A stretch of 33,326 nt of DNA from a virus (IMGVR_UViG_2541047900_000007), one strand, 5' to 3'; shown: positions 4,393-8,862, counted from the first letter of the stretch. The notes: generated by a model from the sequence alone, not told the origin. Made by a program: numbers and translations.

Positions 4393-5273
4393 ACACTCCT
4401 CGTCAGTATTCTGGCGGCCATTGCACTTAATCCCGGAGACATGCGGTTGAATGCTGTGCCGGCGGCGTTAAGCTGCCCGGAAACGGTATCCAGAGCACCT
4501 GCAATATTTCTTTTGTCCACACCACTCAGCGCAGACTGTGCCTGCTGTACATACGTGGCTGCTTCGCTGGCTGTTCTGGCCAGACTGATGGCATCGGGCA
4601 TGGATTCAGAGAGTGCGTTAAACGCCGGAACACTTTTCCCCAGAGCCCCGGAGATATTACCCAGTCCGCTCATCAGCCCCGGCACACGGGTCAGTGCGAC
4701 AACGGGGTTATCCTTCATTTTCTGTGTCACCCGAACGGCGCTGATAGTGGTCTGGAGTACAGACTGCGCCTGTTTCGCATAGTTGACGCCGTTGCGGATG
4801 AACTGCGCCACCCCTGAAGGTGAAGGAATGGCACCGGAGACCGCCCCGACACCCGGGAGCTTCGTGCGTATTGCCGGTGGTTGCAGAGGATTTTTCGGAT
4901 CACCGGTGTATTCCCGGAGAGACACGGTGGCACTGACAGCCAGCACGTTACCGGTGCTGTCTGTCTGCTCGCTGGTTGCGGTCACATCGGTAATCACGAA
5001 CCAGCCACGATAGTCACCGTTGCCGAAGACCAGCGCCAGTGCCTGATGGGCTTTCATGGCTGTTCGCAGTCTCGCCAGCTCCACATCGGGTACACAATAA
5101 TGCTGATGGAAAACCAGAGTTATCTGGATTTCGTCCAGCCTGTCGCCGACGAACTGCAGGCCAGGCTTACCCCCGATGCGGGCATGCTCCGCATAATCGA
5201 CGCCGAACGTGGCCTCGAAGCCGTCCCAGTAGGTAATCAGCTCAAACTCAATATCACCCAGTACGGCAAACAT
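4389..5273 (-). CDS. tail protein with gpU-like N-terminal domain (Mu N / DNA circulation protein family)
   Basis: 294-aa ORF immediately downstream of tape measure; N-terminal pattern IGGKPGLQFVGD...GWFVI resembles gpU/DNA-circulation N-domain. Confidence 0.5.
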   Translation of the reverse strand: MFAVLGDIEFELITYWDGFEATFGVDYAEHARIGGKPGLQFVGDRLDEIQITLVFHQHYCVPDVELARLRTAMKAHQALALVFGNGDYRGWFVITDVTATSEQTDSTGNVLAVSATVSLREYTGDPKNPLQPPAIRTKLPGVGAVSGAIPSPSGVAQFIRNGVNYAKQAQSVLQTTISAVRVTQKMKDNPVVALTRVPGLMSGLGNISGALGKSVPAFNALSESMPDAISLARTASEAATYVQQAQSALSGVDKRNIAGALDTVSGQLNAAGTAFNRMSPGLSAMAARILTRSV

Positions 5274-5899
5274 CAGCGGTACTCCTTACGTTGTTTCTGA
5301 GCCAGCAGACGCTCCAGCATTTTTTCCAGCTCATGCAGGCTCATATTCAGGGCGCCAGTCAGTCCGGCAGGCGCTGTGGTTTCCCTGCCATTGAGGAAAA
5401 ACTGAGGATTAAAGCTGACCTGGATACCACCAGACGTTCCACCGCCGGTTGCAGCTGCACCACGGCCTGAATATCCGGCAGCCAGGATTTCAGGCGAGGG
5501 GATACGGGGAACATCCGGTGTCATCTCATTTGCCAGACGTTGCCCTGGTAAAATCGATGCCCGGGTGGAGAGCGGAATAGCGGGCATGGAAGACAAACTA
5601 TTGATTACGGCTCCGATCGCATTTTTAGCAGACGACATAAACCCATTGATATCGGGCAACGGCATACTGAAGCGAACACCTGAAGTGTTATCCCGTATTT
5701 CTGGCCCCTGAATGCTCACGGGCATTTTGGGGAGCAGTTCACTGGCCATTCGCTGCCCGGCCAGAGCTGCAAGCGGAGTGGTCCGCTGCAGGCCAATGGC
5801 GGCCCCCTGCGCGATATTGTCACCAAAGCCCATAAACACGCGGCTCGGCGAATGAATGCCCAGCTTTTCGCTGAACCAGCCACTGATGCTGTCACCCAT
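5273..5899 (-). CDS. tape measure protein C-terminal fragment (frame stays open upstream to about 6148 but has no start codon before ATG 5899)
   Basis: Begins MGDSISGWF, the same peptide that ends each upstream tape-measure repeat unit; same frame as the ancestral tape measure after removing a 145-bp partial repeat. Confidence 0.5.
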   Translation of the reverse strand: MGDSISGWFSEKLGIHSPSRVFMGFGDNIAQGAAIGLQRTTPLAALAGQRMASELLPKMPVSIQGPEIRDNTSGVRFSMPLPDINGFMSSAKNAIGAVINSLSSMPAIPLSTRASILPGQRLANEMTPDVPRIPSPEILAAGYSGRGAAATGGGTSGGIQVSFNPQFFLNGRETTAPAGLTGALNMSLHELEKMLERLLAQKQRKEYR

Positions 5900-6555
5900 T
5901 CCGGTTACACTGGATTTGAGCGACTCCCATTTGTTTTTGATACCGTTAATCAGACCGTCGACAAGATGGCCACCGAAGTCGGTGAACTTTGCCGGCAGAT
6001 CAACACCAAGATATTTCAGCGCAGCTGCAAAGGCTTTATAGAGCAGACCTGCCGGCGACCAGTTAATCAGCAGCTTACCAGTTCCCGCGATACCGCCGTT
6101 AAAGGCTTCCTGAATGTCAGCCCAGCACTGTTTAAACCAGCTACTGATGGCCGAAATATTTCAGCGCAGCCGCAAAGGCTTTATAGAGCAGGCCTGCCGG
6201 CGACCAGTTAATCAGCAACTTACCAGTTCCCGCGATACCGCCGTTAAAGGCTTCCTGAATGTCAGCCCAGCACTGTTTAAACCAGCTACTGATGCTGTCA
6301 CCCATTCCGGTTACACTGGATTTGAGCGACCCCCATTTGTTTTTGATACCGTTAATCAGACCGTCGATAAGATGGCCACCGAAGTCGGTGAACTTTGCCG
6401 GCAGAGCAACGCCGAAATATTTCAGCGCAGCCGCAAAGGCTTTATAGAGCAGGCCTGCCGGCGACCAGTTAATCAGCAACTTACCAATTCCCACAATGCC
6501 GCCGTTAAAGGCTTCCTGAATGTCTGCCCAGCGCTGTTTAAACCAGCCACTGACT
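5873..6555. repeat. imperfect tandem repeat inside the tape measure gene: 261-bp units at 5889-6149 and 6295-6555 with a 145-bp partial unit at 6150-6294
   Basis: Direct alignment of plus-strand text; the same ~87-aa peptide (SWFKQ.WADIQEAFNGG...KYFG...GMGDSIS) recurs in the translation. Confidence 0.85.
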
Positions 6556-8369
6556 GCCCCCCAGTTGCGGTAGATAAGGTAAGCTGCTGCCGCGACAGCG
6601 GTGATAACGAGACCGATGGGATTCATCATCAGCGCACGTCCAATCCAGAGAACAGCACGTCCGGCGAGCATAATTCCGCGAACCAGCCCCCCGGAGAGCA
6701 CGCCACTCAGTGTTCTGGCTCCTTTGGCGACGGCGCTAAATCCGGTCACCAGCCAGCGGAGCTTACCGCCTTGCCCCAGTGCGAGCGACAGACGAAGCCA
6801 GTTGGCCCGAAGTAAAACAGCATTTTTCCAGACACTTACAAAGGGGGAAATAAGGAGATTCAGCCCCAGTTTGAGACCAACAGTCGCTATCTTAATCGCA
6901 AGGAGCGCACTGATGAGCTTAAAAGCCCCACTGACAAATTGCGGGTGAGTCGCTACCCAGTGTTTTGCCCCCTGAATGAGTGGAAGCAGTTCCTGAGTCA
7001 GAGAAATAAAAGATGGAGCTAATTGATCGCCCAGCGTAATTGCCAGATCACGACTGCTGACCATAAGTGCTTTAGTGGCTTCAAGGGGAGATTTCAGCCG
7101 CTGATCATAAGCACTGGCAAGCAAATCGTTATCCGCAGCCCTGAGAGCACCGGCACGGATCTCTCGATATCTGTCCATGTTGGCCAGCATCGGGCGGATA
7201 AATGCCATGACCTGCATATCCGCGAACATATCGCCCAGACCAAAGTTTTTCGCCAGAGCCTGAAGTGCCTCATCTCTTGCCGTATCATTCTTTATTTTCA
7301 TGGCTGATTTGAAGCCGGCCAGCGCTTCGGGGCTTTTGGCATTGAGGTAACGTTCTATAACACTCAACATCCCTTCAATCGGAGAGATCCCCGCAGCTTT
7401 ATAACTCGCAATAGATCCCTGCAAATCAATACCCAGATCAGCAAACTGTTTCTGAGTATCGCGGGCAAAAATTTTGGTAAGAAAGTTTTTAAAATTATTG
7501 GCTGCTTCGTCGGTGGAACCTGCACCGATTTTTGCTATCTGGAGACTGGCCCCGATTTCAGCAACAGCCTCTTTTCCACTGGCAATACCCGCCATCATTG
7601 GGGCCAGGGACTGCATCCACTTGACCTGATCCGGGATTTCAAATGACCCCTGGTCACCGGCATAAGCCATAATATTCTGAACGGCACCAAAATCTCTGGC
7701 CGCACCTTTCAGGGAGTTTTGCCAGACTGCGGCCACTTTTGCCCAGTCCTGAGCAGACGTGCGTGTTGCCGTTGCCGCGCGGGCAATATCCGGCATCAGA
7801 AAACCGATATCTGACACATTATCAATATTGTCGCTGATGAGTGAACCCACCGCCTCCTGCAGCTCATCCTGATACTGATTGTATTTAAGCGCCCAGCCTT
7901 TTATCTGTCCGGCAAGTGCATCCCGCGTTTTATTGTCATATTTTGCGGTGATCGACATATCAATCATTTTGTCCTGAAAAGACATGGACTGCTGAACGGC
8001 AGGGGAAACCGTATGATAAACAGTCTGTGCCATGCCATACGCTTCAATCCCCTGACCATACAGCGCCATGCGGTTAGCTTTCAGCGCATCACTGGTAGCG
8101 GATGCCGCTGACAGACGGCGCTGCTGGCGCTCAATTTGCTCCATGGTGCGGCTTACCCGCAGCAGCTCGCTGTTGAGATGCTGCATCCGGGAAGAACCCA
8201 GTTGACCATAACGTTCTGTTGCACGGGTTAAAGCGTTCTGACGTTCCTGCAGGCGGCGTGAGGTATCGCTCAGGGAATCAAGCGCACGGCGGGTACCGCT
8301 CATTGCAGAACGGAATGTGCTACCAATCATCCCGCCGATAACAACGCCGACTGAAAACTGTCCCGACAT
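6141..8369 (-). CDS. tail tape measure protein, N-terminal 742 aa (terminated by a frameshift at a repeat junction)
   Basis: Long ORF after the tail chaperone; GGAGGT ribosome-binding site before ATG 8369; coiled-coil and hydrophobic stretches typical of tape measure; ends HQ* exactly at the partial-repeat junction. Confidence 0.8.
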   Translation of the reverse strand: MSGQFSVGVVIGGMIGSTFRSAMSGTRRALDSLSDTSRRLQERQNALTRATERYGQLGSSRMQHLNSELLRVSRTMEQIERQQRRLSAASATSDALKANRMALYGQGIEAYGMAQTVYHTVSPAVQQSMSFQDKMIDMSITAKYDNKTRDALAGQIKGWALKYNQYQDELQEAVGSLISDNIDNVSDIGFLMPDIARAATATRTSAQDWAKVAAVWQNSLKGAARDFGAVQNIMAYAGDQGSFEIPDQVKWMQSLAPMMAGIASGKEAVAEIGASLQIAKIGAGSTDEAANNFKNFLTKIFARDTQKQFADLGIDLQGSIASYKAAGISPIEGMLSVIERYLNAKSPEALAGFKSAMKIKNDTARDEALQALAKNFGLGDMFADMQVMAFIRPMLANMDRYREIRAGALRAADNDLLASAYDQRLKSPLEATKALMVSSRDLAITLGDQLAPSFISLTQELLPLIQGAKHWVATHPQFVSGAFKLISALLAIKIATVGLKLGLNLLISPFVSVWKNAVLLRANWLRLSLALGQGGKLRWLVTGFSAVAKGARTLSGVLSGGLVRGIMLAGRAVLWIGRALMMNPIGLVITAVAAAAYLIYRNWGAVSGWFKQRWADIQEAFNGGIVGIGKLLINWSPAGLLYKAFAAALKYFGVALPAKFTDFGGHLIDGLINGIKNKWGSLKSSVTGMGDSISSWFKQCWADIQEAFNGGIAGTGKLLINWSPAGLLYKAFAAALKYFGHQ

Positions 8370-8444: not shown

Positions 8445-8862
8445 CTATGATTTGTCGCCGTACTCGCTTTTTATTTGCTCTTCAGCCTGCTCCAGCCACA
8501 TCTCCAGATCGTCAGTATCGAGGGCATCAATCTCCCCCGGCTGAAACCGGAACCATCTCGCCAGCAGCCCCTGCGCCTGCGTCAGCGCCCTGGTTGCTCT
8601 CACCCATCCCCGTGATGAGCTGAAATCGTTTCTGTAACTGCAGGTAATCAGCCAGATCCATATTGTCGAGATCTTCCGGGAGAAGACCAGTACTGCGGGC
8701 AATCAGCGGTTCGTCCCAGTCTGCCGGGTTTTTGCTGATTTTGCGCACCTGCTTCAGGTCTTTTACCGTCAGGCGTTTCAGTTCAACCAGCTCAATTCTG
8801 GTGCCTGCAGCAGTGGTGAAGGGATAAGACAATTTAAAAGTATCGGATGGGGTCTGTGACAT
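8445..8862 (-). CDS. predicted frameshift-extended chaperone (E+E'-like fusion; +1 or -2 shift near 8534-8540)
   Basis: Second ORF 8445-8702 overlaps the 3' end of the chaperone ORF in the +1 frame; G5 run CCGGGGGAG lies just before the chaperone stop; conserved chaperone/tape-measure frameshift arrangement. Confidence 0.4.
8527..8862 (-). CDS. tail assembly chaperone, P2 gpE-like
   Basis: 111-aa ORF between tube and tape measure genes; CAGGAG ribosome-binding site; gpE-like LTVKDLKQ...DLADYLQLQKRF pattern. Confidence 0.7.
   Translation of the reverse strand: MSQTPSDTFKLSYPFTTAAGTRIELVELKRLTVKDLKQVRKISKNPADWDEPLIARSTGLLPEDLDNMDLADYLQLQKRFQLITGMGESNQGADAGAGAAGEMVPVSAGGD

Follow-up and report, generated by a model that had tools for sequence, protein, structure and literature searches.

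The window, as the whole analyzed stretch of 33,326 nucleotides (nt) from the virus IMGVR_UViG_2541047900_000007 is called here, contains a phage tail-assembly chaperone gene composed of two overlapping open reading frames (ORFs), the second of which is very likely fused to the first by a translational frameshift, as judged by sequence comparison. All features described below lie on the minus strand. ORF1 (8862-8527) encodes the short form of the chaperone, a protein of 111 amino acids (aa) that is read in frame 0 and resembles gpE and Mu gp41. ORF2, an open reading frame at 8702-8445, overlaps ORF1 by 176 nt and, since (8862-8702) mod 3 = 1, is positioned at +1 (equivalent to -2) relative to ORF1. 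Positions in ORF1 are numbered from its ATG, such that nt 1 is window position 8862 and a window coordinate equals 8863 minus the nt number. The product of ORF1 matches the Pfam family PF10109 Phage_TAC_7 (E = 5.5e-21, with a score of 74.8 against a cut-off of 25) and the tail protein family phrog_166 (E = 2.8e-32), and carries the RefSeq name 'phage tail assembly protein'; searches of solved structures and of NCBIfam returned zero matches. The gene lies between an upstream tube gene (9765-9244; PF04985 Phage_tube, E = 2.9e-53) and the tape-measure gene directly downstream (8369-6141; PF10145), which is represented by its N-terminal 742 codons up to a break in the frame. PhiKM, KP12, and E. 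coli RefSeq records share this order of tube gene, small ORF, chaperone gene, and tape-measure gene.

The region shares 99.7% identity with Escherichia phage PhiKM, a Bcepmuvirus whose annotation contains the short form only. The same locus is present in 637 of 5,426 complete E. coli genomes, where RefSeq annotates just the 'phage tail assembly protein' and no long form. The gene pair is the tail-assembly chaperone of a BcepMu-like E. coli prophage with a tail of the Mu/P2 type. A prior interpretation made from the DNA alone, referred to here as the sequence-only reading, had located both frames and their 176-nt overlap and had recognized a tail chaperone pair, in agreement with the PF10109 match and the slot between the tube and tape-measure genes. 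It had also pointed to a run of G residues just before the stop codon of ORF1 as the place of the frameshift. Such a run of five G residues (G5, 8538-8534) is present in the context GCC GGG GGA GAT TGA and is the sole homopolymer of at least five bases in the overlap, which additionally contains two runs of four G residues (G4, 8611-8608 and 8571-8568).

The locus was compared with ~110 relatives, some of which are referred to by a locus label such as L078. Close relatives comprise 79 loci on viral contigs, with 54 distinct sequences among them; two of these with frame-breaking indels (L078 and L083) were excluded, leaving 52 for codon counts. The diverse set consists of 61 loci from species-representative genomes together with annotated phages, and covers Enterobacterales, Betaproteobacteria, Pseudomonas phages, and metagenome-assembled genomes (MAGs). 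From this set, 68 loci were analyzed for the geometry of the two frames and 62 unique loci of the +1 type for slip-site motifs. For each locus, the window permitted for the shift was defined as the interval from the last stop codon in the extension frame to the stop codon in frame 0. Predicted fusions were also aligned with the P2 E+E' protein in hhalign, using a profile of 18 sequences as input, and natural single-ORF versions were searched for in a set of 5.8 billion proteins.

The extension is found at +1 in 65 of the 68 diverse loci, in one at -1, and in two fused in frame; as these loci were found with the extension alignment as the query, the sample is biased to +1-type relatives. The claim that production of a long form requires a +1 (or -2) shift, rather than the usual -1, is upheld by the offset of 1 and by this count. 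All these relatives conserve the +1-frame peptide ...L-x-x-A-x-x-L-L-A-[RK]-W-F-[RH]-F-Q-P-[GST]-E-I.... Among the 52 close relatives, per-site entropy moves from the third positions of frame 0 to the third positions of the +1 frame from ~nt 244. From nt 289 onward, the third positions of frame 0 have zero entropy, while those of the +1 frame vary, as in the codons for Gly (GGN), Leu (CTN), Ala (GCN), and Arg (AGA/CGG/AGG/CGC). The +1 frame thereby displays both conservation and coding-type evolution from ~nt 254. By its own criterion, the sequence-only reading would have been refuted had the second frame not been conserved as coding in relatives; third-position variation in the +1 frame and the conserved peptide indicate that it is.

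Homology searches place this extension among known chaperone extensions. It matches phrog_8286 (E = 2.7e-34) and, weakly and below the cut-off (18.4 versus 23 bits), PF06528 Phage_P2_GpE. The hhalign comparison of the fusion profile with P2 E+E' gave a probability of 94.2% and E = 1.1e-7 over 125 columns, and the P2 E' residues that follow its verified slip site align with the +1-frame residues RGWVRATRALT...ARWFRFQPGEI in hhalign as well as in MAFFT. The +1 frame lacks a conserved start codon: any one position is shared by at most 13 of 60 loci, and in eight loci the 30 codons that precede the conserved Trp include neither ATG, GTG, nor TTG. Because a conserved +1 peptide is combined with the lack of a conserved +1-frame start, a frameshift fusion like those of P2, Mu, and lambda is the reasonable interpretation. 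A -1 shift was considered and rejected: in relatives, this frame stays open for 18-68 codons beyond the stop, but substitutions in it follow a non-coding pattern. The overlap contains no in-phase slippery heptamer; TTTAAAT and AAACCCG both lie upstream of it, the latter out of phase. Relatives that shift -1 carry clear heptamers, namely A_AAG_GGA in L088 (Pasteurella phage AFS-2018a), G_GGA_AAC in L148 (an Aquifex MAG), and T_TTT_TTG in P2.

The position of the shift is bounded by stop codons on both sides. On the downstream side, the 0-frame stop lies 55 nt upstream of the Trp codon in L138, 40 nt upstream in Bise and L135, and 25 nt upstream in the Symbiopectobacterium/Arsenophonus group. 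On the upstream side, the +1 frame opens just 69 nt before the Trp codon in L085, L130, L137, and L145. The permitted windows overlap solely from 69 to ~52 nt upstream of this Trp, which corresponds to ORF1 nt 239-256, and a positionally conserved site, if there is one, is confined to about this interval. Within it lies the codon for Phe80 (F80). In L086, where the Trp is replaced, the +1 frame opens three codons before this Phe codon, as it does in L085, L130, L137, and L145, and the 0-frame stop follows the Phe codon by 10 codons in Bise and L135 and by nine codons in L134 and L143.

Exactly one in-phase TTT_C is present in the permitted window in 61 of the 62 unique +1-type loci, always at the Phe homologous to F80. 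In the window it forms part of CGA_UUU_C (8628-8622), consisting of CGA at 8628-8626, the F80 codon TTT at 8625-8623, and C at 8622. The Phe codon at this site is TTT in 61/61 loci; other Phe codons of the same N-terminal domains are divided between 65 TTT and 59 TTC, and TTT accounts for 46% of Phe codons in the flanking genes overall and for 0-26% in GC-rich loci. Similarly, the base after the codon is C in 61/61 loci and after 16% of flanking Phe codons. The residue that follows varies among Gln, His, Leu, and Arg, with its codon always beginning with C. The codon before the site varies among the diverse loci (CGA, CGG, CAC, GCN, AAA, GTG, ACG); among the close relatives, CGA_TTT_C is invariant in 52/52, third positions included. 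An Arg codon at this place is CGA in 49 of 50 cases, compared with 14% of flanking Arg codons. The exception to TTT_C is L138, from a Gallionellaceae MAG, which has CTT_C at the site, giving a prfB-like re-pairing onto UUC, and a Mu-like CGG_GGG_C with its G5 run two codons before its stop.

The constancy of TTT_C argues that the slip does not occur downstream, since the +1 frame would then be unread at F80 and nothing would hold TTT_C in place. A slip upstream of F80 is unlikely because just three codons are available in several lineages, without a consistent shifty motif; the sequences AAA_C, ACC_C, GTA_C, GAG_C, and GGC_C in the three codons before UUU were tried as candidates and give no consistent re-pairing across lineages. 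UUU_Y(nn) is a documented shift-prone site for +1 frameshifting in bacteria, with argI, YopN-TyeA, for which UUU_Y is thought to be the site used, and the influenza cassette UCC_UUU_CGU as examples (PMC5009743). A +1 shift on UUU_C at F80 therefore probably yields the long form of the chaperone. The slip on UUU_C, its direction (+1 rather than -2), its efficiency, and any role of CGA are inferred.

In the proposed mechanism, most ribosomes would read ORF1 through to its stop and produce the 111-aa short form. A minority would shift +1 as the P-site peptidyl-tRNA-Phe moves from UUU (8625-8623) to the overlapping UUC (8624-8622), a move predicted to allow perfect re-pairing of tRNA-Phe. The shifted ribosomes would read AGC and onward in the second frame, with a junction of ...KRF|SSSR..., along 58 codons (8621-8448) up to the TAG at 8447-8445. 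The long form would consist of residues 1-80 of ORF1 and the 58 residues SSSRGWVRATRALTQAQGLLARWFRFQPGEIDALDTDDLEMWLEQAEEQIKSEYGDKS, for a total of 138 aa. By analogy with lambda G/GT and P2 E/E+E' (PMC5009743), both forms would bind the tape-measure protein through their shared N-terminal domain, and the extension would recruit the tube protein to the complex. The ratio of short to long form would, by the same analogy, be set by the efficiency of frameshifting. The invariant rare CGA on the 5' side of UUU_C may influence the +1 shift as E-site context, for example through weak pairing there.

Several observations weigh against a shift at UUU_C. Between nt 241 and 253, frame 0 is the better conserved of the two (a Thr ACN occurs as four synonymous codons) and the +1 residues are variable. 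The naive probability of the TTT_C conservation, ~1e-18 for 15 lineages with less than 60% identity, is inflated by shared ancestry, although neighboring synonymous sites had time to vary. The relatives compared have no Shine-Dalgarno-like element upstream of UUU_C, and no consensus RNA structure was detected downstream, where RNAalifold gave -3.1 kcal/mol with zero covariation and single-sequence folds differ among relatives. The 0-frame codon that would occupy the A site after UUU varies (CAG, CAA, CAT, CTG, CGG, CGC, CGT) and is usually the common CAG. In the hhalign alignment, the slip-site Phe of P2 falls 3-4 residues from F80, beside a gap. Mu, the sole relative of the +1/-2 type with experimental verification, shifts at a G5 run just before the W-L-R motif. 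The betaproteobacterial L085, L137, and L145, although not L130, have an in-phase G5 run (GGG_GGA or GGG_GGC) where Mu has its verified -2 site, ~22 nt before the Trp, and shift sites may differ between lineages, some of which may have a second or alternative site.

The G5 run highlighted by the sequence-only reading would serve, as in Mu, for a slip near the end of ORF1, either +1 (tRNA-Gly moving from GGG 8538-8536 to 8537-8535) or -2 (from GGA 8535-8533 to GGG 8537-8535), with ...VPVSAG(G)EIDALD... as the product. The run lies within the overlap, its phase would allow perfect re-pairing for both the +1 and the -2 slip, the verified -2 site of Mu is also a G5 run close to the chaperone stop, and one-base deletions that fuse the frames at G5 recur in databases (L078, L125, P0003-P0005, P0008, P0009). 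Comparison of the slip site across relatives, however, does not bear this site out, and it is very unlikely to be the place of the shift. A 0-frame TAG at nt 313, 12 nt upstream of the run, is present in 29 of the 52 unique close relatives, and the 0-frame stop also precedes the run in many distant relatives. The changes that create this stop, from GTT CCG GTT to GTT TAG ATT, leave the amino acids of the +1 frame unaltered (TTC>TTT, CGG>AGA). The run is kept in 24 of these 29 early-stop relatives, out of reach of 0-frame ribosomes, and is therefore held by its +1-frame codons CCG GGG GAG (Pro-Gly-Glu). It is absent at that position in the distant relatives L079, L081, L084, L085, and L087, and runs of at least five G residues occur in the permitted window of just 7 of 62 diverse loci, at four different positions. 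Selection on the +1 frame begins at least 70 nt upstream of the run, and the +1 residues encoded upstream of it (QAQGLLARWFRFQP) show coding-type evolution and homology to P2 E'. The database fusions are spread over G3, A5, G4, and G5 runs, as would be expected of indel errors or mutations. A minor extra slip at G5 may still occur in this particular phage, but it is not what selection maintains. A third possibility is that the slip site is not conserved in position and that lineages use G5, C4, T6, or UUU_C, with the G4 run at 8571-8568 (GCA GGG GCT, 8574-8566), just before LLARWF, perhaps serving in this phage. Mu shifts at the position equivalent to this G4 run, with its CGG_GGG_C just upstream of EWLRC; a G5 run is found there in L085, L137, and L145, CGG_GGG_C in L138, and CCC_C in Bise, and the family changes its type of shift in evolution (-1, -2, +1). 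Against this, the +1 frame is under selection upstream of the G4 run in this clade, as observed for Gln-Ala-Gln (with synonymous GCN variation), Leu at nt 278, and Gly-Trp at nt 254-259, all of which fall within the alignment to P2 E'. Nine of the 52 close relatives have another base in place of the fourth G, a run is lacking there in L084, and the 0-frame stops of several relatives, 25-55 nt upstream of the Trp codon, exclude this place as the family-wide site. A variable site of this kind is quite improbable.

Closer to F80, the shift could take place at the GGG four codons past the Phe (ACG GGG ATG, 8613-8605, containing the G4 run 8611-8608), which lies inside the permitted window, by a +1 move from GGG to GGA or an imperfect -2 move, with ...FQLITG|WVRAT... 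as the product. Among the close relatives, synonymous variation flips exactly at this point, with the Thr ACN free before it and the +1-frame Gly GGN free, in four codons, after it; 51 of these 52 sequences carry GGG, and frame 0 there changes among Leu, Met, and Val. The -1 heptamers of the Aquifex MAG and the Pasteurella phage occupy about the same position, and the site fits the P2 alignment. The GGG is nevertheless not conserved more widely, being AGC in L084 and L124 and GGC in L081, L103, L114, and L126, and L085, L130, L137, and L145 have no counterpart of it ahead of the conserved Trp. In most close relatives, re-pairing would be from GGG to GGC, which has a wobble mismatch, and a shift at this site leaves the invariance of TTT_C and CGA unexplained. 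It is unlikely on these grounds as the general site; given the conservation of frame 0 at nt 241-253, a slip at GGG in those lineages that carry GGG_N may nonetheless take place, which counts against an exclusive role of UUU_C. The remaining explanation, in line with the output of gene callers, does without a frameshift and takes the second frame as a separate small gene of 52 aa that starts at the GTG at 8603 and belongs to phrog_8286. This start is present in the window, RefSeq contains a 52-aa 'GpE family phage tail protein' (WP_001202894.1) in one degraded copy, and PHROGs holds a 54-residue family for the second frame. The GTG is, however, present in just 11 of 50 close relatives, no start position is common to more than 13 of the 60 diverse loci, and the homologous products of P2 and Mu are experimentally established fusions, such that an independent gene is very improbable. 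The degraded prophage copy in question (L150, E. coli E300010, NZ_CM128601.1 2583480-2583638) has its last 52 +1-frame codons annotated as WP_001202894.1; in intact copies, the extension is unannotated.

A +1 shift on UUU_C has likenesses in several known systems. Tailed phages use -1, -2, and +1 shifts for the chaperone gene pair (PMC5009743). With P2 gpE/gpE+E', the locus shares the PF10109 N-terminal domain, the gene position, flanked by the tube (FII) and tape-measure (T) genes, and a homologous extension, as given by the hhalign match and the weak match to PF06528. The verified -1 site of P2, GGT_TTT_TTG, is likewise a run of T residues at a Phe codon at about the same position, and MAFFT aligns the two Phe residues. 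Both sites are located nine residues before a P-x-x-L motif, and no consensus RNA structure was detected downstream of UUU_C, the lack of such a structure having been described for the P2 frameshift (PMC3091744). The systems differ in that P2 shifts -1 on the tandem-slippage heptamer T_TTT_TTG, whereas here the extension lies at +1 and UUU_C permits just a single-tRNA +1 re-pairing. L146, from Trinickia, has ACG_TTT_TTT_CAA, a P2-like T6 run followed by C, yet its geometry is +1. In Mu, the GenBank record annotates a 'verified -2 translational frameshift' (citing PMID 15469818) on CGG_GGG_CGA, eight codons before the gp41 stop. Mu gp41/Mu_56 resembles the present pair in its Pfam family, gene slot, +1/-2 frame relation, and G5 run near the chaperone stop. 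Mu differs in having a +1-frame stop five codons upstream that confines the shift to the G run, with the Mu extension starting at W-L-R, whereas here the extension frame is under selection ~24 codons further upstream and G5 is unreachable in frame 0 in most relatives.

Outside this chaperone family, the bacterial UUU_Y sites of argI and YopN-TyeA and the influenza PA-X site share with the predicted site an in-phase UUU followed by a pyrimidine, perfect re-pairing on UUC, and no requirement for an adjacent stop codon (PMC5009743). Those examples are an error site, a fusion of type III secretion regulators, and a gene of a eukaryotic virus; the site considered here would set the ratio of two tail-chaperone forms, is preceded by a conserved rare CGA, and has no evident slow A-site codon. 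Programmed +1 shifts are also known from the tail and capsid genes of Listeria phages of the PSA type, where they occur on CCC_UGA (PMC5009743). As in these phages, the result here would be a phage structural or assembly protein with a C-terminal extension; the Listeria sites use a Pro codon beside the stop at the end of the ORF, in contrast to an internal Phe codon 31 codons before the 0-frame stop. The description of the mechanism as atypical by the sequence-only reading is accurate insofar as the shift is not the common -1, but such shifts are already precedented by Mu (-2) and the Listeria phages (+1). Shifts other than -1 in chaperone genes are known and no new principle is involved; the new element would be the conservation of UUU_C as a +1 site in a family of tail chaperones that also has members shifting -1 and -2.

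It appears somewhat more probable than the contrary that a large chaperone clade of the Mu/P2 type uses a deeply conserved +1 shift on CGA_UUU_C without a stimulator, at about the position of the -1 shift of P2, and that the family has switched between -1, -2, and +1 with the junction kept in place. The clade spans prophages in ~12% of complete E. coli genomes together with relatives in Enterobacterales, Betaproteobacteria, and Pseudomonas phages. The long form of the chaperone is essential in lambda and P2. In the present group, it is missing from the annotation of the 637 complete E. coli genomes, PhiKM, and KP12. If the junction were assigned to the nearest homopolymer before the stop, it would be placed ~29 codons downstream of its probable position, and the predicted protein would be incorrect. 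If the shift on UUU_C is borne out, it would represent a natural, selected instance in which a UUU_Y 'error' site determines the ratio of two proteins, and a clean case of +1 recoding without a stop codon or obvious stimulator, kept across distant hosts against codon bias. The invariant CGA on the 5' side offers a testable handle on E-site effects. In evolutionary terms, the occurrence of all three shift types (-1, -2, and +1) in one family, at the same junction or close to it, would suggest that the two-product ratio is conserved rather than the recoding mechanism.

Single-ORF versions in which the two frames are 'hard-wired' together are found in genomes or assemblies (L078, L099, L125) and among proteins (P0001-P0011). 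The one-nt deletions that fuse the frames are scattered over G3, A5, G4, and G5 runs, the commonest being G5>G4 at the run named by the sequence-only reading. In L099, the complete genome of Apirhabdus, the deletion lies 4-5 codons upstream of UUU_C. These fusions were considered as a marker of the slip site and set aside, as their junctions are scattered, most come from automatic assemblies, and they look like homopolymer indels. Indel errors, or mutations acquired by prophages in decay, are their probable origin, and the G5 run behaves as an indel hotspot at the level of DNA.

Other genes of the tail cluster include the sheath gene at 11192-9765 and, between the tube and chaperone genes, a 93-aa ORF (9241-8960). 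The latter matches phrog_1239 (E = 5e-48), with a weak DUF7739 match below the cut-off; it is kept in PhiKM, KP12, and the E. coli RefSeq copies and has no counterpart in the layouts of P2 or Mu. The tape-measure gene (5273-8369) is broken at a junction at 6149/6150 into ORFs of 742 and 208 aa, and has 116 nt fewer than the intact 1070-aa copy in E. coli 510016. The break may reflect either a genuine deletion, which would render the prophage defective, or a repeat that collapsed in assembly. The missing 116 nt fall within internal repeats of ~260 nt (tandem repeat 6011-6294), and a sequencing gap occupies the corresponding position in the PhiKM record.

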